NCBI GenBank assembly: GCA_965235115.1
Contig: OZ249436.1
Coordinates: 8,124,001-8,188,000 of the forward strand
From: Laetmonice hystrix
Taxonomy: Eukaryota
Direction of reading: 5' to 3'
Length of the DNA: 64,000 nt
Positions 13,421-53,923 of the stretch are shown in pieces. The translations under genes and the position numbers were made by a program. Position 1 is the first letter of the stretch. Each line of letters begins with the position of its first letter. Below the pieces are notes generated by a model, which was not told the origin of the DNA, ran no database searches, and saw only the letters and a program-made list of their open reading frames with translations.

Positions 13421-13569
13421 AGGGAATTCCACAAGTCTACTACTTTGGGCCATGTGGGAAATACAACGCCCTTGTGCTCGAACTGCTTGGCCCCAGCCTC
13501 GAAGACCTCTTCGATCTGTGTGACCGAAAGTTCTCACTCAAAACAGTCCTGATGGTTGCCATACAACTG
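13421..13569 (+). CDS. CSNK1G: CK1-gamma exon ([50 protein letters not shown])
   Basis: ttccag/gtaagt; phase 1 joins the previous exon; [12 protein letters not shown]1 signature. Confidence 0.97.
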
Positions 13570-15628: not shown

Positions 15629-15863
15629 ATCACACGCATGGAGTACGTTCATTCGAAGCACTTAATATACAGAGACGTGAAACCAGAGAACTTCCTTATA
15701 GGACGACAGTCAAACAAGAAACAGCACCAAATTCACATCATTGATTTTGGCCTAGCCAAAGAATACATAGACCCAGAGACTCATAAACATATACCATACA
15801 GGGAACATAAGAGCTTAACGGGCACAGCCAGATACATGAGCATTAACACACATCTTGGTAAAG
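15629..15863 (+). CDS. CSNK1G: CK1-gamma exon ([23 protein letters not shown]...DFGLAK...[17 protein letters not shown])
   Basis: ttttacag/gtaagt; catalytic [11 protein letters not shown] and CK1 SIN motif. Confidence 0.98.
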
Positions 15864-19946: not shown

Positions 19947-20117
19947 AACAGAGTCGACGAGATGATTTAGAAGCCTTAGGTCACATGTTCATGTATTTTC
20001 TGCGAGGTAGTTTACCATGGCAAGGTCTGAAGGCAGACACATTGAAAGAACGATACCAGAAAATAGGAGACACAAAAAGGGCAACTCCAATAGAAGATCT
20101 CTGTGAGAACTTCCCAG
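19947..20117 (+). CDS. CSNK1G: CK1-gamma exon ([57 protein letters not shown])
   Basis: ttacag/gtaggt; EQSRRDD and LPWQGLKA motifs; phase 1-1. Confidence 0.97.
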
Positions 20118-20157
20118 GTAGGTCATTGATCCAAGAACTGTTGAAACAGGTGAACTA

Positions 20158-20882
20158 GCCAGGTATCTATGTCAATCTCCTGCTTTAATCTGACCAGTGT
20201 CTTTCAGCCACCAATATTTTACTGGCCAGGTATCTATGTCAATCTCCTGCTTAAATCTGACCAGTGTCTATCAGCCACCAATATTTTACTGGCCAGGTAT
20301 CTATGTCAATCTCCTGCTTAAATCTGACCAGTGTCTTACAGCCGCCAATATTTTACTGGCCAGGTATCTATGTCAATCTCCTGCTTAAATCTGACGAGTG
20401 TCTATCAGCCACCAATATTTTACTGGCCAGGTATCTATGTCAATCTCCTGCTTAAATCTGACCAGTGTCTTACAGCCGCCAATATTTTACTGGCCAGGTA
20501 TCTATGTCAATCTCCTGCTTAAATCTGACCAGTGTCTTACAGCCGCCAATATTTTACTGGCCAGGTATCTATGTCAATCTCCTGCTTAAATCTGACCAGT
20601 GTCTTTCAGCCACCAATATTTTACTGGCCAGGTATCTATGTCAATCTCCTGCTTAAATCTGACCAGTGTCTTTCAGCCACCAATATTTTACTGGCCAGGT
20701 ATCTATGTCAATCTCCTGCTTAAATCTGACCAGTGTCTTTCAGCCACCAATATTTTACTGGCCAGGTATCTATGTCAATCTCCTGCTTAAATCTGACCAG
20801 TGTCTTTCAGCCACCAATATTTTACTGGCCAGGTATCTATGTCAATCTCCAGCTTAAATCTCGTGTCTTTCAGCCCCCAATA
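20158..20882. repeat. 67-bp minisatellite, ~11 copies, in CK1-gamma intron
   Basis: Unit gccaggtatctatgtcaatctcctgcttaaatctgaccagtgtctttcagccaccaatattttactg. Confidence 0.95.
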
Positions 20883-21262
20883 GTGATCTGGAGATTTGTC
20901 TTGAAGTTAAAGACAGCATTTTGAAAGTATCTGGCAGCGTCTGTACTGTCCCATAGATGTGTCCTGCACAAAGGTGTAAATAAACTAGCAACTCTTTTTA
21001 GCAAATGATAGTTCATGAACATGAATTTTCATTTTTACCACCACCTTTTGGTATTGTTACTGGTAGATGGTGTTAGAAATGATAAACACTCAACTTTCTC
21101 CTAGCTTGTGAGTAATTATATCAAACAATCATTTCGTTATCTTATTGTTAGCTATTTCCCTGTCTGGCAGATGATGAAATTCCTGAGTCTGGTGCAACTA
21201 ACTCTGTGACTATGTAAATAAAAATATTGACAGCCCGTGATATTGTGATGTTTTCTTTGCAG

Positions 21263-21411
21263 ATGAACTAGCTACATATCTACGATATGTGCGGAGGTTA
21301 GACTTCTTCGAAACCCCCGACTACGACTACTTACGGAAACTCTTTACAGATCTCATGGTACAAAAGGGCTGGGAAATAGATTGGGAGTTTGACTGGACGG
21401 GGCGCCAGTTG
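21263..21411 (+). CDS. CSNK1G: CK1-gamma exon ([50 protein letters not shown])
   Basis: tttgcag/gtaagt; end of kinase domain (PDYDYLR...FDW). Confidence 0.96.
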
Positions 21412-22456: not shown

Positions 22457-22546
22457 TCGACCCCAGTTTCAATACATACAACAGACGGCGCCATGTCGCC
22501 CGCGCGGGACGACGACAGGAAACGACCCGCCAACCAACCCAACAAG
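22457..22546 (+). CDS. CSNK1G: CK1-gamma tail exon (STPVSIHTTDGAMSPARDDDRKRPANQPNK)
   Basis: ttgcag/gtgagg; 90 nt, phase 0-0; begins like the vertebrate PTPV tail segment. Confidence 0.8.
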
Positions 22547-25299: not shown

Positions 25300-25407
25300 C
25301 AGTCCGCAAATCAGCGGGGCACTGCATGGGGAGAGCCACCGAGGCAATCTAACAATTTGCTGGGAGCTAACCTAACGTCTGCCGATAGGCACGGGGGCTC
25401 CGTGCAG
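25300..25407 (+). CDS. CSNK1G: CK1-gamma tail exon (QSANQRGTAWGEPPRQSNNLLGANLTSADRHGGSVQ), NAGNAG acceptor
   Basis: ttcttgcag(cag)/gtatgg; ADRHGGSVQ matches the vertebrate CSNK1G1/3 tail. Confidence 0.92.
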
Positions 25408-26084
25408 GTATGGTGCCTTTGTCAAACAACCACGTTATGGGCAGTTTGAACCCATCAGCTAGCTGCTTTAAAAAAAATGCCAACCCCCCCCCCTCCTGAT
25501 CCTCGTCCTCCGACCCACCCGCCAACACCCAGTGATCCAGCCCACCCATAGCTTGTGGAATGCATGCACTCCCAGCCAGGGTCCCATTTCTTGGTGTTTT
25601 GTTTCGATTCCTGTTATTCAACAACTTGAGCCTGCCGACTTGGGCTGTTTTGCATGTGAAGCCATGGGCTTGGATGGTGTGGTGACATTGGTCGTCACGT
25701 GACGTTACCCATCCTCAGGTTTAACGTCGGTTAAGTGTGTTAGGTCCGTGAACATAGATTTACCGTACTCAGATATATACCAGCGCTTCAGTCTGGCACT
25801 GAGACAGGTTTTTGTGTGGAGACAAGACCCGCATGTAATTTGTAACGACAAGATATTTTTATACGGAAACCTTTCCCAGAGTCAGGATTGATAATTTGTG
25901 TTTTAGGCCTGTTCAGATTTGTTTCGGTAATAGGAATGGCTTTCGTAGTCGTCGTGTTCTTATGACGAGTGGCCGTTTAAATGAAGAGTGGCCATAAGCT
26001 CATCAGTCCGTGGTGCATTAAGAATGTGCTACACTTAAAGGTGAAAAAAAAACGAGCAGCATTAGAAATGTCAGTCCTGATTCT

Positions 26085-26684
26085 GCTGGCGACTGTCAGA
26101 CCGAGTTGTTAGTGTTAGGGATTGTTTTGTTGTGACGTCTGGAGGTTTGTCCAGTGTATGATGGCGACTGTCAGACCGAGTTGTTACTGTTAGGGATTGT
26201 TTTGTTGTGACGTCTGGCGGTTTGTCCAGTGTACGATGACGACTGTCAGACCGAGTTGTTACTGTTAGGGATTGTTTTGTTGTGACGTCTGGCGGTTTGT
26301 CCAGTGTACGCTGGCGACTGTCCGACTGAGTTGTTAATGTTAGGGATTGTTTTGTTGTGACGTCTGGCGGTTTGTCCAGTGTACGATGTCGACTGTCAGA
26401 CTGAGTTGTTAGTGTTAGGGATTGTTTTGTTGTGACGTCTGGCGGTTTGTCCAGTGTATGATGACGACTGTCAGACCGAGTTGTTACTGTTAGGGATTGT
26501 TTTGTTGTGACGTCTGGCGGTTTGTCCAGTGTACGCTGGCGACTGTCCGACTGAGTTGTTAATGTTAGGGATTGTTTTGTTGTGACGTCTGGCGGTTTGT
26601 CCAGTGTACGCTGGCGACTGTCAGACCGAGTTGTTACTGTTAGGGATTGTTTTGTTGTGACGTCTGGCGGTTTGTCCAGTGTAC
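26085..26684. repeat. 75-bp minisatellite, 8 copies
   Basis: 25-aa periodicity in the minus-strand ORF 26071-26691. Confidence 0.95.
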
Positions 26685-28011
26685 ACATCAATATGTAGGT
26701 ATGTAGTCCGGGGATAAGCCGTTACAAAGATAAGGCTGACAATGATAACCTTTTGTTTTGGTTGTCATAAAGACCTGCTCCTCTTGTCAACGATTAGTCA
26801 AGTACCGGTAGTCTGTGTCAAAGCTTTAGGATTAATGATAGGTGGTAGTTGACAATGAAGATTACAGAATATAGACGATTAACCTCATTGCACGGACATG
26901 AGATCATGTTGGTGTGTACACGGGACGCTAGGAGTAAGGAAATGCATGTTTGATCTGAGATAATTTTTGCATTTCGTTTCATTCCCTTCCCCCTTTCTTC
27001 ACTTATATCCTTAAGTATATATTACGTTGTTGTATTGATTTTGAATACGTGTGTACACGTATACTTTCACCCGTTCTGATTCTAACGCCTTCAGCTGTGC
27101 TGATATTGCTGATAGGAACAGATTTTTGAGTTTCTATTATAAATAGGCCGGGGGGAAATCGAAGTGATTGACAGCCGTTCAGTCCACATCCGTTTATGGT
27201 CTGGCGTTACGTTTCATTTCTATAATATAGAGGGGGGGGGGGCAGTAGTAGAGTGATTTTAATAACGACTTTTGGAGTTACTCGCTACCAAAATTTCAAA
27301 GTGGTTTGCCTTTAGGTGAAAGCTTTCTGCAGCTGTGGATTTGGAAGATTTCTGTTGTACAGAGAGAGGCGCCATTATCCGCAGTCCGACGTTTTCAGGT
27401 CTCTGACTGTGTTTTCCACCAGGTGGCGCGGTAGTTCTTGTCTGCACTCGTACATAATCTGGAAAAGTTCTAATAGTAACCGACAGATGGTGCTTTGCAA
27501 AATGTAGGTCGTCGGTATGGGTATGCGGCAGCACCGTCTTACACTGCTGTTCAGCAAGGACATTTGGTAAAAAATGTATCATTTGTAATAATCAACAGTT
27601 TATGGGTCATGGACGACTTTGAACCAGGAAATATTGACCATATGGTTTATGTAAGAAATGGGTAGAAAACCTTCAGTTCTGTCGTGAGACACCACGTGAG
27701 AATTGTTAAATACTTTCATGCTCTGTCGGGCTAATGCTCAACAGCAGTGCTAATAATATGCCTTGTGTGTCTAGACATAACCAGCTAGACTTTAGTGAAG
27801 CAACCATATCAGCGATTCTAAGCTAAAAAACCTGAGTTTATTTTCAACGATTCGCAGAATCATGAAATTGATCAGACGGCCTTGCCATATAAAACCTCTT
27901 GCACTTTAGAAATGTTTGAAAAGATGGTCAGATGATGTAAGCCTTGGGTGAGGGATTGCTGGTTGCTTGGCAAGTCAGTGTCAAGCTGGATAAATCCAAG
28001 AGAGGAATGAA

Positions 28012-28096: not shown

Positions 28097-28816
28097 ATTT
28101 GATACAAATGTCATCTGTCGTAATGTTCGAACAGTGCACAGAGGTGTTCACATAATACTAGTCTGAATCCACACACCATTATTTTGGTCAACTCTATTCT
28201 TTAGATACAAATAGAATAACCTCTAATAAAGATTTTGAAGTAAAAGTCAGGTGCAGGTTAAAAGACTAATTAGTAATTCATTAATTACTTCCTGTCATGT
28301 GCCCTGTCAGGACGACAGTCTCCTCTCCTGCAGGGTTGAGCAATAGTAGTAGAAGTCTCCTACTGTTATTGAAAGTATGCCTTGATGTACTTGAGTTCTA
28401 CTTTTGTTACCGTTTTGTATTTTATTCTTTCTCCAGGCATGAGAGCGACTCTTTTAAAACTAATGGGACTGACATCATAGCAAATCTATACAAATATCAG
28501 AACTTGACAAAAATAAATCAACTCTATTTCAGTTTGTTGCCAGGTTATATATGAAATATGAATGGCTTCACTATCATCGTGTTACAAGTGTAAAAGAAAT
28601 ACCTCAGCTCTCATACGAGTCCCAAGATAGCTTCACCCATCATACTCCCTGCGCTGTTCACTTGACAAGGGTTCGTTCTCATGCCTGTTTGATTGAGGTC
28701 TAGGGTTATAATGTGTTAGAAAATGTCGCAGACAGCATGTGATAACATGTGCCTAGAGTTAGTAAGTAGTGATTTACAGTCAGAGTTTAATAGATTGATT
28801 TTGACTTGATTGTCAG

Positions 28817-28923
28817 GTGGTGAGCTCGACGAATGGTGACGTCACAGGAGACGACCCTACTGCAGGACACTCCAACACTCCCATCACTGCCCCAGCTGAG
28901 GTGGAGGTTGTCGACGAGACCAA
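28817..28923 (+). CDS. CSNK1G: CK1-gamma tail exon ([36 protein letters not shown])
   Basis: tgtcag/gtgcgt; CK1gamma C-terminal domain [25 protein letters not shown]; ends phase 2. Confidence 0.95.
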
Positions 28924-29633
28924 GTGCGTATACATTTCTATAGTTATCTTTTAACCAATGTGGAGTAGGACTACTAACCTTCAAACTATGTGTTTGAAAA
29001 TGGCTTGAAACAAAAGGTTGTGTGATTATTAAAGCAGAGGTAAAATTTGAACAAGTTCCAATTCCAGTTGTGTCGATTTCTTAGTGTAAACTGCACAGAC
29101 AAAATCGCCTATTGAAAAAGACGATCGTCCCCCCCCCCCCCAATGTTGACATTTTCATGCTGGGAGAATGAGTACCAACACATAGCTTGATCTAATGTCT
29201 ATCTGATTGTCGTGTACACGTTTGCTAATACTACGAAATCAGTCCTATGAACATAGGATCTTATGTGCAGCATATTTGCTAGCAGTCATGTGGTGATTTC
29301 TTCGGTAGGGGAATTGTTCTTCTGTTACATATTTTACCTCCGCTTTAACAAATATACTAAAGGATCAAGGTATAATGTATAGATATTGCCTGATATAGGT
29401 ATATAAATAAATTGATTTAAGGATAGTAGTGAAATAGGGAAGGCCAACAGAAATATCTATCCAGGCTGTTTAGTCACTGAACGGTATGCTCATTTTATAA
29501 AAATAAACCAAAACCTAATGAAAGTTTCTACACCACATGGGGACAGCCATTCGTAAACCGTCCTGACATTACGCCTGCTTGGCGGGTAGATTGGTACGGG
29601 TTAAATACATTTGAATTGCATATCACCATTATA

Positions 29634-30487
29634 TCGGGTGGATAAAAAAAAACGCCCCGAACTTTAAACTTTAATATTTCAATAACTTTGCATTATAATT
29701 CAATAAAATTTCTCGTAATATAACTTCATGATATTATCTCTTGTATGTTAAGGTTTCAGTTCAATAGCTTTAATATTAATCCCGTGGCGCTAAAAACAAA
29801 AATCAGTGTCTAAAAACACAATGCCGGAATTAGGTCAAATATCATGCAGCTGCCAGGTGTCCAATTTGACACCTGTTTGATGCACCGCATTGTATCTTGG
29901 CTAAAAAAGTTTTCAATATTTAGTTTTTGCATGTTTTACAATATGTATAATGTTGTGAACCACTAGATATAATAAATTATGTGCTATTCCTAGTACTTCT
30001 AGAGAAAAACAGATGTTTAATGTGCCAAACCCTACAAAGAAACTGCAACATTAGGACGATATGACTGTAACCAGAAGTTTAAGGGAAATCGTATCATTAT
30101 CACGTTTAGCAACACGTTCAGAACGCTGCTTATTTCCCAATAATGGGAAGACAATTCCCTATCAGAGATCAGGAAGTGCATTGGCACATGAAAAAAGAGA
30201 CTGAGAGCAGTTTGAAGTGAAAACGGGGGACCGATTGACCACCTACTCAGTGTGAAGCCAGGGACTCTGGGTGCGACTACCACTCGCTTTAGCCCGGCAT
30301 TGCACTTTTGTACAATGATTTTTGTTTTCAGCGCTACGGAAATATTATCCAAGCTATTGAGTTGTAACATTAACAACTAAGAGACGACATCATGAAGTGA
30401 TAGTAGGAAAAATTTCATTGAATTACAATCAATACTTTTTGAAATATTGAAGTTTAAAGTTCGGGGCGTTTTTTTTTATCCACCCGA
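29634..30487 (+). mobile_element. Tc1/mariner deletion derivative with ~185-bp imperfect TIRs and TA TSD
   Basis: ta-tcgggtggataaaaaaaaacgccccgaactttaaact.. and its inverse; decayed transposase C-terminus WEDNSLSEIRKCIGT*KKRLRAV*SENGGPIDHLL at ~30144-30248. Confidence 0.85.
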
Positions 30488-31304
30488 TATTTGTGCATTA
30501 TATTCAAATGCTAAATATCCTGTAATGTTTTTCCTTAAACTGTTTTTTTCCCCCTAAAAAATCTTTTTTGATAAGTGATTATACGGTAGTTAGGCGAACT
30601 GATTTGGAGTTCATTTCAGATTGAGTACTCTGCAGTGTTATTTTTGATTAATATTTATGTTAATATTGTTGTTAAATCATGATTTTGTCATGATAACTTT
30701 ATAGCACATGAACCCGAATTTCTGTTTTGATTGCTATGATAAACGCATGTTACTACCAGTAGAATTTGTTTAGAAATTTCAGGGAATGTTACTTAAAACT
30801 TGGCTACAGCAGGTGTAGTGTATTACTGCGAGCGTCTGGCTGCTCCCATGTGGTTAAATAAACAAGGTATCCGCTACAGCGTTTGGTCTGGTGTTCACGA
30901 GGCAGCCTTGGTTTTTATTTGGAGATGCAAACCTTTCTTTTAATAGAAGAGAGTTGAGAAAACGTTGGAATAAGAACTAAATCAGGAAAGTCAAAAGCTG
31001 GTGGGCTAGTTGGGGTATTAAGGATTCAGTAGATTGAGTACTAGTTGTTAGTCAGTCATTTTCAATTGCCAGTTCTATATAGAAATGGAAATAATTCGAC
31101 CTGTTTAAATTGAAGCTGTTATTTTGTGTGGACAAAGATTGTGTTGGTTGGGGTTGATTTGTGTATTTCGACGTCCTTGCCTATGTCTGGGTGATGCTGA
31201 CTGATACATTGTATATATGATACATACAGGTGGCATGCTGGTGCTGCTACATGCTGTCTGCTGCCTTTCCTACCTTGACACTCAAACCCACATCTTTCTT
31301 TTAG

Positions 31305-31353
31305 GTGCTGTTTCTTCCGGCGCCGCAAGAAAAAGAAGACCCGACAGACGTAA
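31305..31353 (+). CDS. CSNK1G: CK1-gamma proximal last coding exon (K-CCFFRRRKKKKTRQT*)
   Basis: ctttcttttag acceptor; phase 2 completes AAG; Cys pair plus polybasic tail; TAA at 31351-31353. Confidence 0.88.
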
Positions 31354-32662
31354 CCTGGTGCTGAATGCTAGGCTTAGTGCTGTGTGTCATTGTGAAGCTC
31401 TACTGGGCACTGTATGATGATGATGATTATGATGAGTTAACATGTAAAAAAAGATGAAGAGACACTGACAGGGGGGGGGGGGCAAGCCTGAACTGATGTA
31501 ACCAATGTCGTTTGGCATTCGCCCTGTTAAAATGTGGAAGTTGGGATCGTTTCATAGTGGGTTCCTGTCCATCATCACTCACAATCCACTGGTGCCAGAC
31601 CATCATGGAAGCAGGGACGGTCAGCTTCTCCCTTTTTTCTCTTTTATTCGAGGACAAACGAATAATGAAGTTTGCTAGCCGTACTCTGACTTGTGTGCTA
31701 GTAACCTAAAGGTGGGCATTGTGTGATCGGGGGGAATCTCTTTGTAAAAGAAAAAATTGGCTATTTGGCCTCTTGTGTGAGGCCGGTCTGTGCGGTTGGT
31801 TTCTGTGACGTTCACCAAGGGGTTTGGGTAGGACCGGATGTGGTCCACGCACAGATACGTACTCCACAGGGCTATTTCTGGTAGGTCACCCTCCTTACCA
31901 GGTTAATAATAGAAGGAAAACTGTCCCTCAGTTATTCAGCTTGCTCATTATAGAATATTGTGATTAATGCTAGAGGGAACAATGTATAACTGAACAAATT
32001 GTAAATTATTATTCATGCATATTAAATGGGTGTCTGTGTAGTCGCTACCACGGTGGTACCAAACTTTGTCATGGGACCATTTGAAATGAAGACGTAACCG
32101 TACTAGGTTTTAATGTATGGCGAGTATAGTGAAATCATGGTAGTTTGGTGGGGAGGGTCCGTAACCGACTGATGTAGTTTGCTGTCGGTCTGACACCGCC
32201 ACCCAACTTCCATGTTACGACAACATTGAGCAGATTACGCTGGTCGGCTCCGGTGACGCGCCATATTGCGAACGGTCCGGGGTGTCGGCCGCCTGGCGGG
32301 GAGGTAGCCGGTGGGGGTTCTCTTAGGCGCTCCCAGGTGGCGCCACACTTGACGAGTTAGCGGGATTGTAGTAGCTGATGGCAGCCGACTGCTTGGCACG
32401 GGGCTCTTTGTATGACATAGCGCAAAGTGAGCTTGATTAAGACAGACCAGCATCATGACCAATCAGCTTCTACTACTCTACCGCTCTACTACTACTACTA
32501 TCTACTACTACTACTCCATATCTCTAACTAGCCACAGGCGCTGCCAGTTGGCGAGCTGGTGCGGCAGGCAGCCTCCACGTTCCCGGCTCTGACCACTCTG
32601 ATCCGTGTTGACAGTCGGGTGTGGGACAAGATCTGATCGGTGCATACCCTCGTGCTTTGTAG

Positions 32663-32717
32663 GTGTTGCTGCTTCTATAGGCCGAAGAAAAAGAAAAAGG
32701 CGAAGCGGCAGAAATGA
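32663..32717 (+). CDS. CSNK1G: CK1-gamma distal alternative last coding exon (K-CCCFYRPKKKKKAKRQK*)
   Basis: tgctttgtag acceptor; phase 2; TKCCCF resembles human TKCCCFFKR; TGA at 32715-32717. Confidence 0.88.
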
Positions 32718-35700
32718 TATGAGGTGCATGACCAGGATCACGATACAGTTCCTTTGAGGTCGCGTTGGGACTCTAAGCAGACTCTACCGTCTAGCGGGCG
32801 GACGAGCCGCGCCAGTCGCAGCTGACGGCCTGACACCTAGCGGCAAACCACAAAACTACCGCAAAGTCTCCTCCTCCTCACACAGCAGAACGGGCCCAGT
32901 TGACGGCGGATGAAGGTGCCTGTTAGCTCTTCTGAGTTCCGCTTTTATTCCCCCAATCTGTTGCTCCAGTCACGTATTTAGTATTAAAACGCCATAAAAT
33001 GACCATTGATAATGTACTGCAAAATTAATGTAGACTCTGCTACCTTTTTGGCAGAGTTAGTGAGGGACACTTAGCATGTATGTCACACCGTGGTTTATGT
33101 AGCGCAACACCAGTGTTTCAGAAAGTTTGTAAATTTAGTCAAATGAGCTAAATGTAACTTTTTGATCGAAGTCATTGACTGTGAATGGATCGAATTTCAG
33201 TGAGTCATTCGCACTGTCACCTGATGTAGTCGTTTTTTATAGTGTGTTAATTAATATCGAAAAATCATTTTTTAACTTTGAATCTGTGAGCATGGTGCCT
33301 GTAATAGATAATGTGAAGTTGTCTTTATCTTCATAACTCGTTTGTTCACTGCCACGGGGTGCATCAATATGAGAATCATGATTTCATAGATCACGGCAAA
33401 ATTATTGAAATAACAACGTGTGTGTACATAAGTTATAATTTAGGAACTTGTGCATTGGTAGAGGTACAGTCTTAATTATTGTCAGTTATTTATTTCCAGA
33501 AAGTTCGTTTCTTTTGGCTTTATAGCAGCGGAAATATGTACTGGTAATAAACAATCAACGGTTAAGATAAAATCACGTTTAGCGCTGTATAGAAATCATT
33601 GGCACACATTGGCATCTATTGACTGTTGACATGCCTTCATTGGTCAAGGGAAGAATGCTGTTGCATATTAAGATATATCGGTAGAGACCCAAAGTGGAGC
33701 GTTTAGGGAAAAACAAAAGGAGAACGATTTGTGAGAAGGTGTGAGGAGATTCATTAGGAGCACACTTGTGGTAGGATCTGTATCGTGACACCTGGTCATG
33801 TAAGAGTTATCCCAGTCTTCAACCGTCTACGCACACCCACTAACCTCGCCCAGACAAGAAACTATTCAGACGGTAGCTCTGGTAGCCTGAGGAGGTATGG
33901 TCTAGGTTAGCTAGGAGGTGTGGCGGAGACCCGTCGCACCCTTCAAGTCCACAGCACGTGTGCGACACGTCAGCAGCGCAGATGGGACTCCCATTTTTTT
34001 CTGATCTGTATATATGTCAAAAGAGGCCGCGATCTGCCTCGCCAAGTCATTTTTTATTATTGGGCAGACAAGGCCACATCCATCCTCAACTTTAGAGAAA
34101 ACTTCCATGCCTGTGGAAAAGAGTTCATAACAATCAACTTCACTACCCGTTGTCCGGGGGCAGTGGACAAGGCGGCACCTAACACAGACGGGCTGGAGGA
34201 GAGAGAGAGAAAGGGTGCGAGGGCACGTGGCTATGTTGTTGTCAGGACACGGTTTGACCAGTGCTGGAAGCTGCAGTTTAGTGACTGGTTCACATATACG
34301 AGGAAATCCCTCCCATGAGCCCGCCCGCCCGGCCTTGGGCTCTGTGCTACAGCCCAACCCCCCCCCCCCCCCCCCAATATACATGTCTGTCTGTGTTTGC
34401 CATGTCTGCTGCCCGGTGTGGTGCCCTGAGCCCGGTGCGGTGCCCTGAGCCCGGTGCGGTGCCCTCAGCCCGGTGTGGTGCCCACTTCGCGCGACCTGTG
34501 GGTAACGCATGCTGGTTGTTCTATATTAAAACAAAAAGATCTGTAAAGCAGAACGCCAGCAGCGTGGGGCACCAGTATTCGACTACAGCTTCAAGATGGT
34601 CAGTGAAACTTCGCCATGGTTAGCATAATTTTATGTCCATTGGGATTAGTTAAGTAATTCCTTCCAGACTAGTATGGTAAAGAAACCTTTTAACTGTGGT
34701 GAGCCTTCTATGCGACTCCCTCAAGAAAGCCACACAGCATAGGGTTGCGGGACGAAGAAAAAAAAGGATTTTGTCTTTTGTTTGGAAGATTTATTGAAGA
34801 AGAAATTGTGAACGCCTGTATTAGTATGAGAAACCTGAACCTGGTCATTGAAGGATGAAAATGGCCCCGAGTGAGTGGAGCACCTGATGCTCCTGCCCTT
34901 AATTATGCGCCGGCTGAATGTCTCCTACTGCCTGCTGCCGCAAACTGTAAATGCTGTAGTTATATGGGAAGGTCATGTCAATGTCATGAACGTTTTAATT
35001 TTGAACCGGCCTCGCTTTTTCTTTCTAATGATCAACATTCCACATTGAAATATGTCCGTCAGTTGTCTATGTCGCTAACATGAATAGAAATAACTGCCGT
35101 GACAGTACTGCCAATTGATGTGCAGCAAACTCGGTCTGGTACGGTACTCTACCTGAGAATAGCAGATGTTAAACGGCAGACAATTGGCAATATGCAAGGC
35201 AGTGATGGCATTATAGAGGCTGGTGCGAGAGTGTGGTCCTTTTGAGACATGACGCAAAGATGAGCTAGAGGCTGCGTTATGCAAACAAGGCCGCGCGTAC
35301 AAGTTTCTGAGCATGAGTGTAGGCAATGCAGCAGGCAGGTAGGGGAACGGACTAAGCCGCCAGTCTAGTGATCTGTCTGTTGTCACCAGCGAGGTGTGCT
35401 CCAAAACTAGGGGATGGAATATTCTAGAACTTTGTATATAGAAACTGAGGATAAAATGTTGCAGGGTTGCACCCAGATTTACAACACTTTACTATTGTTT
35501 TACATTTTGTACATGTGCAAGTATATATAGCGTATGACCACACTATGAGTTCTGATGAACAGCTCCTGTTTCTTTTAGTCTTGTACATATCAAAGGAGAT
35601 GCTCTTGTATGTGATTGGCAACTCTACTAGGCGCCACCCGTAACCATGGTAACTAGAAAACTAGGCTTGAAAAAAACCGAAACAAAAAGCAAGGGAGACA

Positions 35701-37250
35701 CCTTGCAGAGGGGCCACCACAACAGGTGGATTGAGTAGAGTATGTGGCAGTCGTAACAGGTCCTCACAGCGAGGGCAACACCTTTGTACTAGACATTATT
35801 TTTAATAAGCGAACATGTCTGGAGCAGAGTACTAAAACTGTGTATGTTCCTACTACTTCTATGTACCGGTACTTTCATGGATATCCTACGAAGCAGATCC
35901 TGATACTGGCTTAAATCAGCTTGCAACCGAGTCAAAAACTACATTTTGTGCATAGCTGCTTTCAAGTCCCCAAAACCCACCTCATGAATCTGAGCAAACA
36001 AGATGTTAATTAGTTAATATAACCCCGTGAAACCCACCCGGCAGTGACAGATTGGTTTGGTGTATATTAATATAAAGGTCACCACGTGTAGTACAACACA
36101 TGCCTGATCTCCACCCTGATCAGATCTCAAAGTTTGGCAAGGTTCACATGAAGTCGACCCAGAATTTTTAATACCAATTTATTGTAACCACTGACGATTG
36201 TTGGTGTTCATCAGAGGTTAAAATCCTAGGGGGCAGGGTGTACTGTGGCTGGGAGGGTAGTGGGGAAATCAAAAACGGAACCTCTGGGCTATCTTTTCTT
36301 AGACGATTGTGTTCCAGCAGAGTTGTTGCCAGGCCCGCCAACTGAGTTTTTTTTTAATTAGATTTTTTTCACAAACGTTCCCTGTAAATACTAGAATTCC
36401 GCATACTGTTCTAGATTGTAACAAATATTTACATCTCTGTGGCTTTTTTTCTTTTGTACAACCAGAAGGACCTAGCTGTACCTAGAGATAGCTAAATAAA
36501 GATGCAATCTGTGTTTGGTACAGTGTGGTTTCATACGGAACGAATTCAGCACTCAGTGCGTGTGGACAGTGATATCTCCACGACATGCGATCCATGTAAC
36601 CCCAACGCCACCCAGGCCCCTGCCATAGTAACCTTGGATGGTACCCGTAAAACAAGGTCTGGCACGAGTCTGGTTTCAGTAAGCAGAATCGGGCCACGAG
36701 TAAAGATGAAAGTGCTGGCACTGACCATGGAACACCAATTTCCAATACTATTTTGGGACCCCAAATTCCCCGACAGCCAAAAGTTGTTTTTAAGAAAAAG
36801 AAGAAGATTTTTTTGGGCGGCATCTGAAAAGAATGATACTATCGGCACGCATTTAACCCGTTATCTGTCTCGGCCCCTTAAGACGGGTATAGGTAAACTG
36901 GTTGTGCTTGGTGAAATTAAAGACGTCTTTAACCACCACATCCTCATTAGTGATGTAACTAAACTTTGTATCGTTGTAGGCCGTTTTTATAACTCTATCC
37001 CGATTGGGACCGTAGCAAGGTTCATTTACACTGAATCTGTATTTTCGATTTAAATGAGACCTGCACAACTCGTTAGTATGCCACTAAACGGGGAATGAGC
37101 TCGGAATAATCACATTTTGGTTTGGTCCACTTGTACAGTTTTTGAATTTTTTTGTGCTGGACTATAGGTACTCGGCAGTAAGATGACATCGGTTTGGTTC
37201 AGAGTTAGAGCTGCTGTGGTCTTTTTCAATAAACTTCAGATATGAAACGG
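32718..37250 (+). other. Probable long 3' UTR of CK1-gamma, candidate poly(A) signal AATAAA at 37228-37233
   Basis: No convincing exons or large repeats for ~4.5 kb; U-rich/UGUA-rich; other AATAAA hexamers also occur earlier. Confidence 0.35.
34410..34483. repeat. 19-bp GC-rich tandem repeat, ~4 copies
   Basis: gcccggtg(t/c)ggtgccctga. Confidence 0.85.
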
Positions 37251-40755: not shown

Positions 40756-41329
40756 GTAAGTTCAAAAACAGATCGTCATCTTCGGCTCTCTCTCTCAACT
40801 TCACGATGTCCTCACTGTTCTTGAGATAAGACTCTATCCTAGCTATAAAATGTCTTAGAGATTCACTTGATGTTGTCGGAATAACTATTTTTATTATTAG
40901 AAAAAGGACGCTCCAACTGACTTGGCATCGACAATAAACGACTAGTGACGCCAACCGGCAACATTCGACAATATTCTGTGAAGGATGACCACGTGGCTGC
41001 CCGACCTCCCGACATCAGATGCTTCGCCACAGCACAGTAAGAATGTGTTTATGTTACTATCCTAAACATGCAGAATGTGAGGCGGGAGGGGCGTCGATCT
41101 GAGATGGGATCGGGACGCACATTCTCTGTCCCCTTGGATCTCACACTTTCTTTTCAAAGAAGGTTCTGTCGGGGTTAACTCGCTAGGCATGTAGGAGGTA
41201 CTTGTAAATTCGATGTTTCTTTGTAATTACGTTGATGAACCGTCCATCAGGGTTTTACGCCAACCGCTCACCAAGAACCGTCTTCCCCCCTCATCTCTGC
41301 AACTCCATGCAAGTTTTCTTCCTATTCCA

Positions 41330-41353
41330 CTGTCTGTCTCTGTCTCCGTCTCC

Positions 41354-41427
<74 letters not shown>
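41330..41427. repeat. (CT)n microsatellite upstream of the gene A exon 2 acceptor
   Basis: Direct reading. Confidence 0.95.
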
Positions 41428-41431
<4 letters not shown>

Positions 41432-41479
41432 AACGTATCACTCCGATTCCCAGCTTCATGATTTTCTTTTCGTTTCAAG

Positions 41480-41652
41480 ATATATCTGTATCAAGAACTC
41501 CGCCAAAAATGGGTCGGTTGTTCTTCAAAGACGCAGCCATCGACTGGCCCTCTGCCGAGGCCTCATGGGGATTCGCCTGGCCATTACACGTCTACTTGTC
41601 TATCATCGTCTATTCCGTGTTAGCATTTATAGCTCTGCTTCACCTTGCAAAG
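41480..41652 (+). CDS. 7-TM PRRT3/4-like gene A, exon 2 (...WPSAEASWGFAWPLHVYLSIIVYSVLAFIALLHLAK)
   Basis: tttcaag/gtgaga; WxLHVY TM1 motif typical of PRRT3/PRRT4-like proteins; paralogous to 51806-51994. Confidence 0.85.
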
Positions 41653-42110
41653 GTGAGAATGGTTACTAAATTGACAATTTCTATACCATACATAGCTTCT
41701 GGGCGGTTTCTGTTGTTTGTAATAGACGAAAGCAACTGGGAAACATTTCCGTCGTTTTGCCTACGCTTTTAGGGGAGTGGGAATTATATAAATCCAGTCA
41801 TCAAAACGTATACATTGTACTGATCTCGACTCAACTTAATCCCGTTTTCATGTCTTGATTCATAGAGAGTGGGGTACCAGAAACAGAGGGATATTGAAAT
41901 CGGTGCAAAAGACCCGCCGCAGCAAAGGGCCGTCCTGCTGGCCGGCCAGGGGTCGGTCGGTAGGACGAAAAAAAAAAACAACCCAAAAAAAACAAACAAA
42001 GAAACAAAAAAACAAACTGGATGGAGTTGAGTTGAGTTGGGTCGGTACGTGTATGGCCTAAAATGACTGGTTTTTTTTTTTATAACTGTCCACTTCTCAC
42101 TCCATGACAG

Positions 42111-42920
42111 GTTATTCGGACTCCAAACATTCCGAGCAAGGCGTACTACATAGCCCTAAACATGGTGATACTGATAGCTACACTGAGCCGTGCAACCCAC
42201 CTGGGCATTGACCCTTACGGTTGGAAACGTATCCTCAACAGATGGCAGACCAGACTGGCGATTGCCCCTCTGTTTCCAGGCATTACAACGGGTTTCGTAC
42301 TCATCTTTGCCACTTTGATGCGCCTCACCAAAATGCGGCTAGTATCCCATCGCCTTTTCAGTCCCCGCTCGATAGTCCTCTTGACCCTTTTCAACTACTT
42401 TGTCGGCTTCTCAACTGAGATGATCGGAGCTTTCTTCATTGAAGTCATCGTTTTACTTTTAGTGTGTGAGATCTATTTCGTAACCTGGGGTATCGTCGCC
42501 TCCTGTGCCTATTTTTACGTTTTCGGTCGACTCTACCTCCGCGTCGTTGTCAACAGGCGTAAGCTGAACGTCCTAACTACAGAAACTACGGTAACGAAGA
42601 TCTCGAGCGAAGGACAAAACAGTCAAAACGGTAAAGCGACATCTGGAGGCGAGAAAGGGAAGGGGAAGGATGCGGAACTGGACACGAAGATGCCGGTGGC
42701 TGCCAAGATAACACTTGTGTGTGGAGTCGCCTTCATGGCCATAGCTATTCTCCACATATGGCGAATCAGCGAGGCGGTTTCGGCGTATTTCCGAGATGTA
42801 AAGTTTGCAAACCCGTGGCAGTGGTGGTGCTACAAGACTGCATTGAGATTGAGTGAGTTTGTCATGTGTGGAACCATTCTCTTTGTTGGTTCCCTCCCTC
42901 TGTATGGCCGTAAGAAATGA
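42111..42920 (+). CDS. 7-TM PRRT3/4-like gene A, last exon (TM2-TM7); total about 334 aa
   Basis: gacag acceptor; 270-codon ORF; R..xLxxDPYG motif; six hydrophobic helices; aligns with 50732-51511. Confidence 0.88.
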   Translation, partial: VIRTPNIPSKAYYIALNMVILIATLSRATHLGIDPYGWKRILNRWQTRLAIAPLFPGITTGFVLIFATLMRLTKMRLVSHRLFSPRSIVLLTLFNYFVGFSTEMIGAFFIEVIVLLLVCEIYFVTWGIVASCAYFYVFGRLYLRVVVNRRKLNVLTTETTVTKISSEGQNSQNGKATSGGEKGKGKDAELDTKMPVAAKITLVCGVAFMAIAILHIWRISEAVSAYFRDVKFANPWQWWCYKTALRLSEFVMCGTILFVGSLPLYGRKK

Positions 42921-46342: not shown

Positions 46343-47420
46343 GGTAGGTATTCACCACACCAGTTTGGCATCAGATAGACACGTCCCACTAATAACACTG
46401 CGTGGCCTCAACACGTTCTAAACACGTGTTATACACGGTAGGTGTTCACCACACCAGTTTGACACCAGATAGACACGTCCCACTAATATCACTGGTGAGG
46501 TCAACAAGTTATAAACACGTGTTATACACGGTAGGTGTTCACCACACCAGTTTGACACCAGATAGACACGTCCCACTAATATCACTGGTGAGGTCAACAC
46601 GTTCTAAACACGTGTTATACACGGTAGGTGTTCACCACACCAGTTTGACGAGTTACCAGATAGACACGTCCCACTAATATCACTGGTGAGGTCAACACGT
46701 TCTAAACACGTGTTATACACGCTAGGTGTTCACCACACCAGTTTGACACCAGATAGACACGTCCCACTAGTATCACTGGTGACGTCAACACGTTCTAAAC
46801 ACGTGTTATACACGCTAGGTGTTCACCACACCAGTTTGACTCCAAATAGACACGTCCCACTAATATCACTGATGAGGTCAACACGTTCTAAACACGTGTT
46901 ATACACGGTAGGTGTTCACCACACCAGTTTGACCCCAGATAGACACGTCCCACTAATATCACTGGTGACGTCAACACGTTCTAAACACGTGTTATACACG
47001 GTAGGTGTTCACCACACCAGTTTGACACCAGATAGACACGTCCCACTAATATCACTGGTGACGTCAACACGTTCTAAACACGTGTTATACACGCTAGGTG
47101 TTCACCACACCAGTTTGACACCAGATAGACACGTCCCACTATCACTGGTGAGGTCAACACGTTCTAAACACGTGTTATACACGCTAGGTGTTCACCACAC
47201 CAGTTTGACTCCAGGGCCAGCCGCACAGAAGGTGTTGATAGTGTGGGTTTTGATACTGGCCACTAAAACTCAATGGCTATCAGTATTGATAGTGATGCTG
47301 ATAGCACTATCAACCTTCTGTGCGGCCGGCACAGATAGACACGTCCCACTAATATCACTGGTGAGGTCAACAAGTTATAAACACGTGTTATACACGGTAG
47401 GTGTTCACCACACCAGTTTG
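46343..47420. repeat. 93-bp minisatellite, ~10 copies, interrupted by a MITE
   Basis: 31-aa periodicity in the ORFs; 93-bp spacing of ggtaggtgttcaccacacc. Confidence 0.95.
47215..47331. mobile_element. 117-bp MITE with CAG TSD (Harbinger-like) inserted in the minisatellite
   Basis: gccagccgcacagaagg..ttgatagtg / cactatcaaccttctgtgcggccggc; empty site seen in sister units. Confidence 0.8.
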
Positions 47421-49507
47421 TGACAAGGAGTGCGACACTGTTACTGATGCTCTAGAATGAAAGCCAAACAGGTCTACTTCACCTTCTCAAACATAGATGG
47501 CGCCACTGCCACCCATCATCTAGGGATGTGGAAAAAAACAGTACACCGCAGTGCGGTATATGTGCGTTTAAAGACGTCTAAAAATACACCGCACTGCGTG
47601 GTATGCGCAGTGAAAGGGTTAAACGATATAAATTATATGTCAGACAATGTATTTTCCCAATTATTGCTTGATTTACTGAGGTGTCCTCATAGGTGGGAAT
47701 CTCCAAATTTCATCAAGATATCTCAAAAACTCACTGAGTTATGAGTATTGTCTTACAACTACCTAAATGAGACACAACCATGGAAGATGTTGAAAAAAAA
47801 GCAGAAGAAAAAAAATAGATTCTCATTCCACATGAAAGAGAAGAGGTGCAATGTATCAGATCGTTGCATTGAACTGGAAATCCGACATTTCAGAATCCCG
47901 TTCCTCCCTTTAGGGAGGAACGGGATTCAAAAATGTCGGGTTTCCCAAAGGATGCTATCAGAAAAAGTGTTTTAGACCAAGAAAATGGATGATTTATGTT
48001 TGATTGATCTACTGTTCTAAGCTTTTCTATTTCTGGATGGCCCGGTTTTGTGATTCAAAGTTGGTGACTACCACGTCTCTTCATTAGGCCTACACAGAGG
48101 AGCACTCTTCCAGACAGGAAGGAGGCCTATTATGTCAGTGTTGGGAGGACGCCTTTTAGAGCTGCGTCATCTTGAGTTGTCAAGGGGCATCGCGCATCCT
48201 GCATTCTACCCCTTGAGCCCAGCCCAGGCTAACCGGGCAGAAGTTGACCCTGAGGATTGATGAATATGAATAGGACCTGCCATCGTCGCTCCACCCGAAC
48301 TAATGAACGGTCCTCACCGAAGGCTTACTTCTCGCAAAAATGCCTGATAGCCTTGCCCAGTTCGCTGATAAAGAAATGTGTCCCTCCCTAACAATACAGT
48401 TTGTAGCACTCTGACTTGATACGGTTTAACACGCGAAATTCCAAACATTAGGCCTACACTGGCCCGGTGTCGCTAGCGCTGGCGCTGGCTGTCGCTCTCG
48501 GCCTCTGGGCCGTGAACGTTCCTATTGGCTAACCAGAAATGCACGCTATTTTTATTAATCGCGCCTTAGGCAGTGCTGTAATCTGATTGGTCTACGGTGT
48601 ACCGTAGAAGGTGGAAAACAGATGGCGCTGCGAGCTACGCGTTTCTGAGAATAGGCGGGCAGGCGGGAGGGGGTGAATCACTGGAAGCGGTTCAACCCCG
48701 AAAAATGATGATGATGTGGGATGAACGATAATTGATGATAATGATGAGAACGATATCCAAGATCCGCAGCCAGAGCCTCTAACAGTTTAGATCTACTCAT
48801 CCCCTCCCCCACCCACCCACCCTAGGATAAGGTCAGAACTTTCCTTCAGATTGACTCTCGCAGACACAGAGATGTAAAAAAATCTGTAAAACTTCTCAAC
48901 TAATATGTAAATGATCATTCCTGAAAATTGCCATGAAAACATGTTGGGGATAGGAATATCTTTGTGACGACTGTAGTGCTTATAGTCGCAAATTCAAAGT
49001 GGAAATGATTCTTGCTACTTTCATTGGTCCATCGTTTGCGCTTCTGGTTGCGTCATTAGAATCAATATCCCTGGCATTACATCACAAGAATTGTTCTTAC
49101 CCCTCTAAAAATACAAATTCTTTTACTATTTTTGCAAAGAAATAGCTTGCCGTTGAAACAAAAGTATTGCTTGGTTGCATTTTAACTACTCTATCACGAC
49201 CGGAATCAACTGGAATCTCCAGATTTATACTTGCCTCTTCACCTCTGACGATCTTGATGGCACTGAATGCTTGTCATAATTATTGTTTATGTTAACACAT
49301 GCTATGAAAAAAGTTATATTCTCCCGGGTGGTAAAGGGAGTACAACAACCAAAGCAGGAATGGCGTCAAACAGCATGGACGCTATGTCACGAACCGTGGG
49401 AAGATCATTCTCTTGAATTCGTGGCACGATTGGTGTAAGTAGTAAGTTGAGGCTGAAGTTTTATGTGCTTGTAAAAATTGTAAGAGAGTAAGTACCATCC
49501 GACGAAG

Positions 49508-50244
49508 GCGTCTTGCGTGGGGGCTGTAAGATATACCGTTTGGTTAATTTAGAGTGTCTTGCGTGGGGACTGGAAGATATACCGTTTGGTTAATTTAGAG
49601 TGCCTTGCGTGGGGACTGGAAGATATACCGTTTGGTTAATTTAGAGTGTCTTGCGTGGGGACTGGAAGATACACCGTTTGGTTAATTTAGAGTGTCTTGC
49701 GTGGGGACTGGAAGATACACCGTTTGGCTAATTTAGAGTGTCTTGCGTGGGAACTGGAAGATATACCGTTTGGTTAATTTAGAGTGTCTTGCGTGGGAAC
49801 TGGAAGATATACCGTTTGGTTAATTTAGAGTGTCTTGCGTGGGGACTGGAAGATACACCGTTTGGTTAATTTAGAGTGTCTTGCGTGGGGACTGGAAGAT
49901 ACACCGTTTGGTTAATTTAGAGTGTCTTGCGTGGGGACTGGGAGATATACCGTTTGGTTAATTTAGAGTGCCTTGCGTGGGGACTGGGAGATATACCGTT
50001 TGGTTAATTTAGAGTGCCTTGCGTGGGGACTGGGAGATATACCGTTTGGTTAATTTAGAGTGTCTTGCGTGGGGACTGGAAGATATACCGTTTGGTTAAT
50101 TTAGAGTGCCTTGCGTGGGGACTGGGAGATATACCGTTTGGTTAATTTAGAGTGCCTTGCGTGGGGACTGGGAGATATACCGTTTGGTTAATTTAGAGTG
50201 TCTTGCGTGGGGACTGGGAGTTATACCGTTTGGTTACTTTAGAG
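49508..50244. repeat. 46-bp minisatellite, ~16 copies
   Basis: gtgtcttgcgtggggactggaagatataccgtttggttaatttaga. Confidence 0.95.
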
Positions 50245-50731
50245 CGTACATAGAAAATTAGGCAGTGATTAGTTAGCGCAGACAAGACAACACATAATCG
50301 TTTTATTCAAGATTTCACCACAACATGTTAATCCTCCAGAACATCACTTGGCTACATTATATTAGAATACATTATTATGATTAATTCTGTGTAAGAGTTC
50401 TCTGAATGCATTATTAACTGATAATCGACCGTCTGTGATTGTCATTGTATTCCAAGGCTAGAATACTAAATAACTGCTACTTGGATAAGATATCTATGAA
50501 TTTCGAATCGGGCCTGTGTAGCTAATTGTGACAGAACTGGCATGACGAAACAAAATCGCGTGCCTTCCTTAAAATGCCACCTATATTACAGAAACAAATT
50601 GTTGCTATATAGTGTTCAATCGTGCGATATAGGCATTTGAATCTGTTTCTTCGCTAATCATTTTAATATAATATTACCACCTAAACTGGGACTGCTATAG
50701 TACACAGTAAATGTACATATCCCCCTCGATT

Positions 50732-51511
50732 CTATTTCTTTGAGGGCCCGTAGAAGGGCAGGCAGCCCACGTACAGAACCGTAGAGCAAAGTACAATCTC
50801 GGCGATACGAAGCAGGCTCCGGTAAACGAAGAATTCCCAAGGATCTGCATACGGTTTGCCCTTGGATGTCGCAATCACAGCCACTATGATTCGCCAAATG
50901 TGCAGCAAACCGACAAAGAAGAATGCGATTCCACAGACCAGAGTCAGTTTAGCAGCCACGGGCATTTTTGTGTCGAGTTGGCCACTCTGTGGCTCTTGCT
51001 GAGATTTTTCTCCGTGGCCGCTTTGCGACGAAGCCTCGACGGTGGAAAGCTTGTTGAGATTGCGACGATTCATGACGACTCGGTTGTAAAGACGCGCAAA
51101 GACGTAGAAATATCCAGACGATGCCAGAACGCCCCAAGCCGCAAAGTACGCTTCGCAGATGAGCATGAGGATGTTGATCTGCTGCACCAGAACGCCCACC
51201 ATGTCTGCCGTTAGACCGAAACTGTAGTTGAAGAGGGTAATGAAAGCAGTGACTCGCGGGCTGAAGATTCTCGTGGACACAACTCTAACCTTGGTCAGCC
51301 GCATGAGTGTGGCAAAGAGCAAGAAGAAGCCAGTCGTAATGCTGGGAAGTAGTGGGGCAATGGTCAGCACGATCTGCCAGAGGGTCAGAATTCCTCGCGA
51401 CCCATACGGATCAACCAAGAAGAAAAATGCTCGGAAACTGCAGCAGATGAAGACTGACAAGTTTAAGGTGAAGTAATAGGGTTTACTTGGCAGCTTCGCC
51501 CGGAAAGTAAC
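50732..51511 (-). CDS. 7-TM PRRT3/4-like gene B, last exon (TM2-TM7); total about 322 aa
   Basis: tttcag acceptor on minus; RAFFFLVDPYG, FATLMRLTK and LDTKMPVAAK shared with gene A. Confidence 0.88.
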   Translation of the reverse strand, partial: VTFRAKLPSKPYYFTLNLSVFICCSFRAFFFLVDPYGSRGILTLWQIVLTIAPLLPSITTGFFLLFATLMRLTKVRVVSTRIFSPRVTAFITLFNYSFGLTADMVGVLVQQINILMLICEAYFAAWGVLASSGYFYVFARLYNRVVMNRRNLNKLSTVEASSQSGHGEKSQQEPQSGQLDTKMPVAAKLTLVCGIAFFFVGLLHIWRIIVAVIATSKGKPYADPWEFFVYRSLLRIAEIVLCSTVLYVGCLPFYGPSKK

Positions 51512-51805
51512 CTGAAACATAAGAAAGAAAATGGTGACTCACTGTTAAAGCAACGAATGATGTCTTGTAGGTAATTTCACCCACAGCTTTCTTTAACAAT
51601 GTTTCTCCTCATTTAGAGTTAGTTTTACATCGCTAGCACTGAGCAGAGCCCAGTGAAAACAAAATTCTCGACTAATTTAAAAGCTGTCGTGCAGTCCGAA
51701 GTTTTCATCACCTAGAACTTTAAGGTGTACCAATTCACCCTGGTTGTTAATAATTGTATTTGTACTGAGAGACACACGATACACTGGATTCCATGAAAAG
51801 CCTAC

Positions 51806-51994
51806 CCTGATGAGATGCACCAGCCCCCAGACAGCAAGAACCAAGTAGCAGAGGGCTGAAGTATAGACGTGAAGCGGCCATGCCTGTCCGTACAGGACAA
51901 GAACAACCGGCCAGTTGACCGGAGCATCCAAGAAGAATGGCGGAATGAACCCTGGTTCTTTGGTACCATTCATTACCGCCGTCGTGGACTCCAT
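51806..51994 (-). CDS. 7-TM PRRT3/4-like gene B, first coding exon (MESTTAVMNGT...AWPLHVYTSALCYLVLAVWGLVHLIR)
   Basis: Acceptor just upstream (tttttccag, ~52002); AGG|gtaggc donor; same intron position as gene A; N-glycosylation sequon NGT. Confidence 0.85.
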
Positions 51995-52630
51995 TATACT
52001 ACTGGAAAAAGAAGAAACAAAAAAATACCCTCATTAGAGAATAAAATATTTTGGGACCCCATCGATCGTAAAGAAGAATACTTCTTGCAGGGCCCTGCGT
52101 GAACGAAGCCGTGCTGAAACCAATTACATTAATTGTTTTTGTTAAAAGAAAATTACAGATTTGTTTCTGTCAAATATAAAGGAACCCCTTGTGACTTTAG
52201 AAACACCACGGTAAAAACTTTGTCATGTGAGTTTTTTGACATCTTAAAGAAGGCGTAAAGCGTCTGACCTTTAACTTTCCAAGGTGACACATCATAAACG
52301 CCCTTTATAAAAGTTAAGAAAGAAGAAGGGAGAAAGACATCACAAGGAACGCAATTAGGAGACCAGCAGTTGTTAGTGTAAAGAGGAAAGTCTTTAGAAC
52401 AAGGGTCCACGGTAATCAACACAGAAAGACAAACGTGACGGGTCATGTCCAAACAGACTTCATACAGCCAATAATGAGAAACTGTAGCCGCGCTCCACAC
52501 GGAGTAAAATCGGTCGTGGTGGTCTACGCTCTCTGGGCCAGTTCTTTGATTCTCTCTTTTAATCGGATTTTGGGCCGGATTTTCTGCAAGGTCCATGGTT
52601 TTCTCCGGGTGCCCCGGTTTTCTCCACCGG

Positions 52631-53683: not shown

Positions 53684-53923
53684 GACAATGAAGGACTTAA
53701 TTACACTCCACCTCATATTGCGTACATTTTTTCATGTTAAATATGAAGTTTGATCTGAGTGACTTTTCTGATTTCCATAACATCAAAGGACCACTCCTTT
53801 GTAAAGCACTCGCAATACACTCGACTTGGTTCAAACTTGACGGACAATCCAGAGAAACAAGCAATGCGAAAGTATCGAATGTCGTCCAGCGGCAAAGTCT
53901 ACGAGTAGGAACGTACAGATTAA

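Follow-up and report, generated by a model that had tools for sequence, protein, structure and literature searches.

Twin terminal exons of a CK1-gamma gene in Laetmonice hystrix, one of them followed by a candidate stop-codon readthrough region

The stretch of DNA analysed here (64,000 nt, the whole of it referred to as the window) carries on its + strand a CK1-gamma gene, of which the 5' end lies outside the window. Mapping of homologues by tblastn and a listing of splice sites placed eight exons of this gene between 397 and 28923: seven upstream coding exons (397-466, 13421-13569, 15629-15863, 19947-20117, 21263-21411, 22457-22546 and 25300-25407) and a penultimate exon of 107 nt (28817-28923). 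Joined, they give 1079 nt and end in phase 2, and the frame stays open up to a single terminal stop whether it is continued by 31305-31353 (exon A) or by 32663-32717 (exon B). The kinase domain was recognized on one exon (PF00069, E 7.4e-14) and the CK1gamma_C domain on the penultimate exon (PF12605, E 2.3e-11); the joined body is 74-92% identical to all 30 CK1-gamma proteins compared. Judged from its predicted protein, which has a CK1-type kinase domain, CK1gamma_C and a Cys cluster with a basic stretch, the gene is CK1-gamma (gish/CSNK1G). Exon 25300-25407 or exon 22457-22546 is missing from many homologues, and the former has a NAGNAG acceptor (25300/25303) that would add or remove one codon.

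The donor of the penultimate exon has a GT directly after 28923, and an AG stands directly before 31305 and before 32663, 1358 nt apart. An earlier note on this DNA had proposed that this phase-2 donor is accepted by two sites about 1.36 kb apart, and the splice sites and both open frames agree with this. The proximal exon A encodes TKCCFFRRRKKKKTRQT followed by TAA (31351-31353), a tail of 15 residues with two Cys and eight K/R that is near-invariant in spiralians. The distal exon B encodes TKCCCFYRPKKKKKAKRQK followed by TGA (32715-32717), a tail of 17 residues with three Cys and nine K/R that ends in RQK. The Cys numbers were as previously described; neither tail is literally TKCCCFF, the motif that had been invoked, and the basic patch, thought to be switched between them, is nearly equal in the two (8 versus 9 K/R). 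Only these two of the 495 AG sites in 28930-37000 yield a Cys/polybasic tail, defined as a phase-2 peptide with at least two Cys in its first six codons and at least five K/R.

Behind one donor there are thus two homologous terminal coding exons of the same phase, as in duplicated alternative terminal exons, the homology resting on a short, low-complexity match and on the outgroup having one tail. The completely distinct 3' UTRs of strict alternative last exons were not found: exon B lies inside long A transcripts, in this species (record 27 of assembly X4, see below) as in three sequences from relatives (L003, L007 and L008), which are spliced A transcripts with B in their UTR. With exon B placed in this way inside long A transcripts, A and B compete as acceptors within a single terminal unit and do not form exons with wholly separate UTRs.

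Four Logan assemblies (X1-X4), all from one sample, were compared with the window over 28300-36500. Its pattern marked X4 as RNA-like (58 Mb, cover lacking both at 30492-31039 and past 34601, and a contig starting at the acceptor); X1-X3 were DNA-like, with the intron covered as in DNA. Record 25 of X4 starts at exactly 31305, preceded by 214 letters, a length that matches the penultimate exon (107 nt) together with 107 nt counted from 25301, where the two paths of the NAGNAG acceptor merge. The bin depths of X4 fit this junction (1.00 versus 1; 22.0 versus 22). Since the contig begins at 31305 with an upstream length equal to that of the two preceding exons, we infer that junction 28923-31305 is used in this species. 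Junction 28923-32663 was not seen in X4, where the bin depth (14.05 expected, 14.1 seen) leaves no room for an extra contig; contigs drop rare forms, and its absence from X4 does not show that B is unused. The comparison of the two junctions that had been called for, run on X4 alone, hence spoke for A, by the reasoning above, and did not reveal B.

Record 27 of X4 covers 32547-33068 unspliced, reading across the acceptor of B, and cover extends to the bin at 34328-34601, with none beyond. Because cover continues unspliced past B to about 34.4-34.6 kb, exon B is contained in the UTR of the long A mRNA. The shared 3' UTR was accordingly placed at 31354-34530; hexamers resembling poly(A) signals occur in it at 32983, 33546 (AATAAA) and 34525. 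It had also been suggested that an ATTAAA at 32021-32026 ends a proximal isoform. The hexamer is present, and the end of one X4 contig at 32032, with the next beginning at 32093, gives a weak hint of its use; no matching counterpart was found in the four relatives examined (no ATTAAA in L006 and L007; one at -391 from B in L002 and one at -57 in L003), so that it stands as a candidate signal whose position is not conserved. It was observed that 31174-33647 differs from the sequenced allele at 15 of 2472 positions, compared with the more frequent 7-10 of 404 in the intron (28300-28700), as would be expected if the terminal region is constrained.

The distribution of the two tails was examined in three protein searches (best 120 of 7881, 120 of 1206 and 120 of 285 matches), which together gave 340 distinct proteins. 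Among those listed, 202 had a CCCFFK tail, 69 no classable tail, 45 an A tail and 24 a B tail; of the last group, two (P0100, P0119) are squamate tails that only the pattern had assigned to B, and without them 22 spiralian B tails remain. Named A-tailed proteins among these matches come from at least 17 species (16 molluscs and Owenia), and named B-tailed proteins from at least 14 (molluscs, two nemerteans, Lingula and Helobdella). Named arthropods and deuterostomes among them have only the CCCFFK type (105 of 105 in Drosophila); the matches include no named nematode, flatworm, echinoderm or cnidarian and bound the taxonomic range only roughly. Both tails are already present in NCBI annotation, as unremarked isoform models.

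In relatives, the two tails are used alternatively by single genes. Pairs of A- and B-tailed proteins with identical bodies were found in Argopecten (367/367), Babylonia (437/437), Dreissena (367/367) and a Mytilus-like sequence set (424/424, 2-kb contigs). On a quick tree of kinase bodies, the A and B tails need 18-19 changes and the outgroup tail one; since A and B are mixed over this tree, they are exons of one gene, and paralogous genes as their source are ruled out by this mixing together with the identical bodies. The body encoded in the window is nearest on this tree to sequences grouping with Helobdella, a leech, at a node that lacks starred support; a spiralian source, probably an annelid, fits this placement. 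Contigs shorter than 5 kb are the source of six B-tailed proteins, five of them being full-length; therefore, spliced B mRNA exists in relatives.

A scan with the exon A pattern recovered 10 loci, or 7 lineages after near-identical loci were merged. Exon B with an intact acceptor lies downstream of A in four of the seven (L002, L003/L008, L006 and L007/L010), at distances of +681, +723, +807 and +2072 nt. Neither exon B nor the stretch that follows it was found in the 4.1-4.4 kb behind exon A in the L001/L004 lineage, where B may have been lost or lie further downstream; the L005 and L009 sequences stop within 613 and 374 nt behind A. That one gene uses both tails, as the earlier note held, is borne out in relatives by the mollusc or mollusc-like pairs, and exon B is kept behind A in the four lineages; the note's contrary outcome, a single observed junction with the other exon not conserved in relatives, does not hold as to conservation.

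The single tail of arthropods and deuterostomes, CCCFFK..KKK..RQK, has FF as in A, and three Cys and an RQK end as in B. Since one outgroup tail combines these traits, exon duplication is, as previously proposed, the simplest origin of the pair. Exon B shares its three Cys, RQK, TGA and readthrough region (a candidate in B, see below) with the insect exon; because of this match, it is probably the ancestral exon, with A a spiralian duplicate that would have acquired a tight stop. Exon A keeps the FF of the insect exon and is without one Cys, the final Lys and the TGA. The Cys pattern of B varies (CCC, CCGC, and CCW with two Cys in L002), and in one relative (L006:6329-6575) the B tail is lengthened to 45 aa, with a TGA-C stop and a diverged extension of 36 codons that keeps Q..DTV. 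Short insertions at the same junction occur in leafhopper, amphioxus and vertebrates (P0161, P0083, P0088, P0110), the leafhopper's adding two Cys; splicing thus varies this junction of CK1-gamma in several lineages. Two candidates for a conserved regulator of B were rejected: an RBFOX-type TGCATG at 32724 behind B is absent at that place in three of three relatives, and a CTAAC 139 nt before B is likewise not kept.

Behind the TGA of exon B, the frame continues for 35 codons up to a second stop, TGA at 32823-32825. This extension (32718-32825), overlooked in the earlier note, is the clearest fixed difference between the two exons. When the window was compared by blastn with the loci of relatives, alignment was confined to the two exons, A and B, and some 75-110 nt past B's stop. 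The stop of B is TGA in all five lineages compared (the window and four annelid-like lineages with B), and the second frame has 35, 27, 35, 35 and 36 codons. The stop of A is TAA or TAG in eight of eight, and nothing is conserved behind it (identity 0.26).

Conservation of the extension is of the coding type. Synonymous and non-synonymous changes number 38:33 in B's frame, versus 3:68 and 7:64 in the other two. Mismatches at codon positions 1/2/3 among the window, L003 and L007 are 16/21/59 of 105 each, a third-position excess also found in true exons (2/0/15 of 27 and 4/0/19 of 45); no such excess was seen in flanks of 105 nt following the second stop, following the stop of A and preceding the acceptor of B (85/80/77, 73/82/75 and 81/81/74). 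Variable columns are 4/4/19 of 27 (Fisher p 1e-6, in a test that counts columns, not independent events). Conservation ends at the second stop. The predicted peptide contains 5 acidic, 6 basic and 10 Ser/Thr residues in 35 codons, four of the acidic ones among the first nine residues.

A profile of the extension only was searched against 1.84 billion proteins and returned five matches. One of them, P0342 (E 2e-7), has a B tail, RQK, one Trp and then the extension in register; it is an ORF over the intron and exon B of another animal. The other four were dropped, as a long repeat (P0341), a zinc-ribbon repeat (P0343), a kelch protein (P0344) and a 9-residue multi-stretch match (P0345). The extension is absent from the 340 protein models among the matches listed, and for this reason standard annotation misses it.

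Programmed readthrough of B's TGA is the best reading of these observations: the TGA is conserved, coding conservation in frame 0 runs from it to the next stop, and neither splicing round the stop nor selenocysteine is supported. The leaky-context feature, a C at +4 or a 3' stem-loop, which is common but not required for readthrough, was not found; the stop is TGA-T in four of five lineages and TGA-C in L006, with an A at +5 in all five.

A readthrough stop is known in the same gene of insects. Drosophila gish-RD and Anopheles AGAP003997 are listed as an 'ancient' readthrough pair, with TGA-C and regions of 69 and 63 codons that both start 52 nt into the last exon (Jungreis 2016, PMC5100048, Supplemental Data S1); gish is also the example gene in Fig. 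1 of PMC13278127. As 52 nt equals 1 + 48 + 3 for the 16-residue insect tail ending in RQK, the insect stop takes the same position as that of B. The two cases thus share the gene, the stop after a Cys/polybasic RQK tail, a phase-2 last exon and conserved coding sequence behind. They differ in that insect gish has TGA-C, 69 or 63 codons and one terminal exon, whereas the present case has TGA-T in four of five lineages, 27-36 codons and one of two exons, and lies outside Pancrustacea; the likeness compared here is one of position and tail. According to PMC5100048, abundant readthrough was found in no species outside Pancrustacea, and one proposed annelid case is mentioned. The name gish gave no match in the main text and two supplementary files of Dunn 2013 (PMC3840789).

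Pairs of lipid-anchoring last exons are known in other genes. KRAS4A/KRAS4B likewise carry a duplicate of the last coding exon upstream of the older copy, and their two polybasic, lipid-anchoring C-termini have persisted over hundreds of millions of years, but KRAS is a GTPase with CaaX prenylation, its 4A exon came from another gene (NRAS) and no readthrough is described (PMC9882654). The two last exons of CDC42 (E6/E7) also alter only the lipidated C-terminal peptide and the UTR; they have wholly distinct UTRs and contrast prenyl with prenyl plus palmitoyl (PMC6411841), whereas both CK1-gamma tails keep the Cys cluster and B lies within A's UTR. The ancient tandem duplication of SNAP-25 exon 5a/5b alters a palmitoylated Cys cluster, but these are internal, mutually exclusive exons, not terminal ones, described in vertebrates (PMC2581893). 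Human CSNK1G1-3 (PMC9254030) and Drosophila Gish (PMC4900676, PMC3307696) have a C-terminal Cys cluster and basic stretch, as here; arthropod and deuterostome CK1-gamma among the matches listed show one tail type per gene, with short junction insertions and no second two-Cys exon. A literature search that reached few subscription journals or bioRxiv supplements found no paper on twin CK1-gamma tails or on spiralian CK1-gamma readthrough. Duplication of lipid-anchor exons and readthrough of gish are known separately; no published account was found of their coupling or of a readthrough signature beyond Pancrustacea.

We consider it likely that the last CK1-gamma coding exon was duplicated in an early spiralian, that splicing chooses between the copies and that only B permits readthrough. 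Donor 28923 would pick either the proximal or the distal acceptor. The choice of A would give the short, near-invariant two-Cys polybasic tail with a tight TAA/TAG and leave B in the 3' UTR; the choice of B would give a tail that has, as a rule, three Cys and a basic linker that varies, followed by RQK and TGA. On B-spliced mRNA some ribosomes would pass the TGA and add 27-36 residues (35 here), with an acidic run at their start, beside the basic patch, and rich in Ser/Thr. The splice choice would thereby decide whether a kinase with the extension can form, for a total of three C-termini from one gene. Because of the four acidic residues among its first nine and its ten Ser/Thr, the extension could loosen the anchor or make it phosphorylation-dependent, by weakening electrostatic membrane binding or adding a phosphorylation switch. 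A wider proposal, given slightly less than even odds, is that the readthrough stop is a single site already present in the last ancestor that insects and spiralians share, long before the Pancrustacean burst, and that a readthrough-proof spiralian duplicate lets splice choice toggle both readthrough and anchor.

The earlier note had seen the purpose of the two exons in a switch of acylation number (two or three Cys), basic patch and membrane compartment, which would make the extension minor. All 45 A-class tails among the matches listed have two Cys (by the class rule) and the 22 spiralian B tails three. In human CK1G, the Cys trio and basic stretch set localisation: they retain the kinase at distal and post-Golgi membranes, and when they are lost a hyperactive kinase is released (PMC9254030); Drosophila Gish needs the same motif, Cys-to-Ser Gish being cytosolic (PMC4900676). 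S-acylation and membrane location are thus known for human and fly CK1-gamma, and by analogy both predicted tails should anchor at membranes. However, no comparison of two with three Cys was found in these two reports, the B tail of L002 has only two, Cys spacing varies (CCC, CCGC) and K/R number hardly differs between the two tails. Conserved alternative tails therefore stand, while the Cys number that was to distinguish them is not fixed; a switch of acylation number is possible as the purpose of the exons, with weaker grounds, and we regard this explanation as rather unlikely.

A second explanation, which we find unlikely, is that the isoforms differ mainly as mRNAs: A would retain an additional 1.36 kb of 3' UTR, or have a short UTR if 32021 is used, and B would remove that additional stretch, altering mRNA localisation or stability. 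The interval between A and B is indeed present in long A transcripts, and last-exon isoforms of Cdc42 are sorted by their UTRs (PMC6411841). Nevertheless, nothing between A and B aligned among relatives (blastn, word size 7), where no complementary or conserved element was found; only the exons and the extension align, and the peptides are under strong selection.

Production of the extension by A-to-I editing (UGA to UGG) or by selenocysteine insertion, in place of near-cognate readthrough, is improbable. In P0342 a Trp, conceivably encoded by TGG, stands where the stop would be, and TGA is fixed in five of five lineages; yet this protein could stem from gene calling with TGA translated as Trp. 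A search of 31300-35000 gave no match to SECIS or any other Rfam family at E<=5, and there is no conserved hairpin behind B's stop (fold z 0.19 to -0.95 for three sequences, consensus -3.96 kcal/mol). The X4 contig over 32717 has one differing letter, placed at 32996, in an assembly type that drops minor variants.

That this species uses only A and keeps exon B as a silent relic is highly improbable. Only A is supported in X4, and B was not found in the 4.1-4.4 kb behind A in L001/L004, but exon B, its acceptor and its extension are intact here, with synonymous-biased conservation versus three to four relatives amid unalignable flanks. Hardly any credence can be given to the stretch behind the TGA being an RNA element that is not translated, or a piece of some other spliced exon: it also serves as 3' UTR of the long A mRNA, but its changes are synonymous in one frame only, and its conservation starts at the first codon after the TGA, with no AG in the alignment for in-frame entry between them, and does not extend past the second stop.

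In Wnt and Hedgehog signalling and in trafficking, CK1-gamma is active only at the sites to which its lipid tail directs it, so that a fixed choice among three tails would be a lever on these processes across molluscs, annelids and their kin. With a region behind the same stop in insects and annelid-like worms, readthrough of B would be a candidate for one of the oldest conserved animal readthrough sites, for which the tight-stop twin exon A provides a built-in control.

Other features of the window were recorded. In the intron before exon A, an element of about 857 nt (29632-30490) with inverted ends of 197 nt (82% complementary) has very high depth in all runs and is absent from the allele in X1-X3; it is a polymorphic MITE-like insertion. 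Minisatellite arrays occupy 20154-20921 (67-nt unit), 26074-26750 (75), 46400-47430 (93), 49500-50250 (46), 53900-54350 (55), 58780-60100 (40) and 60680-61200 (67). Two facing genes, at 41239-42920 (+) and 50732-52030 (-), have no Pfam family above cut-off and encode paralogous multi-pass membrane proteins that are 50% identical over 272 aa (E 2e-95).
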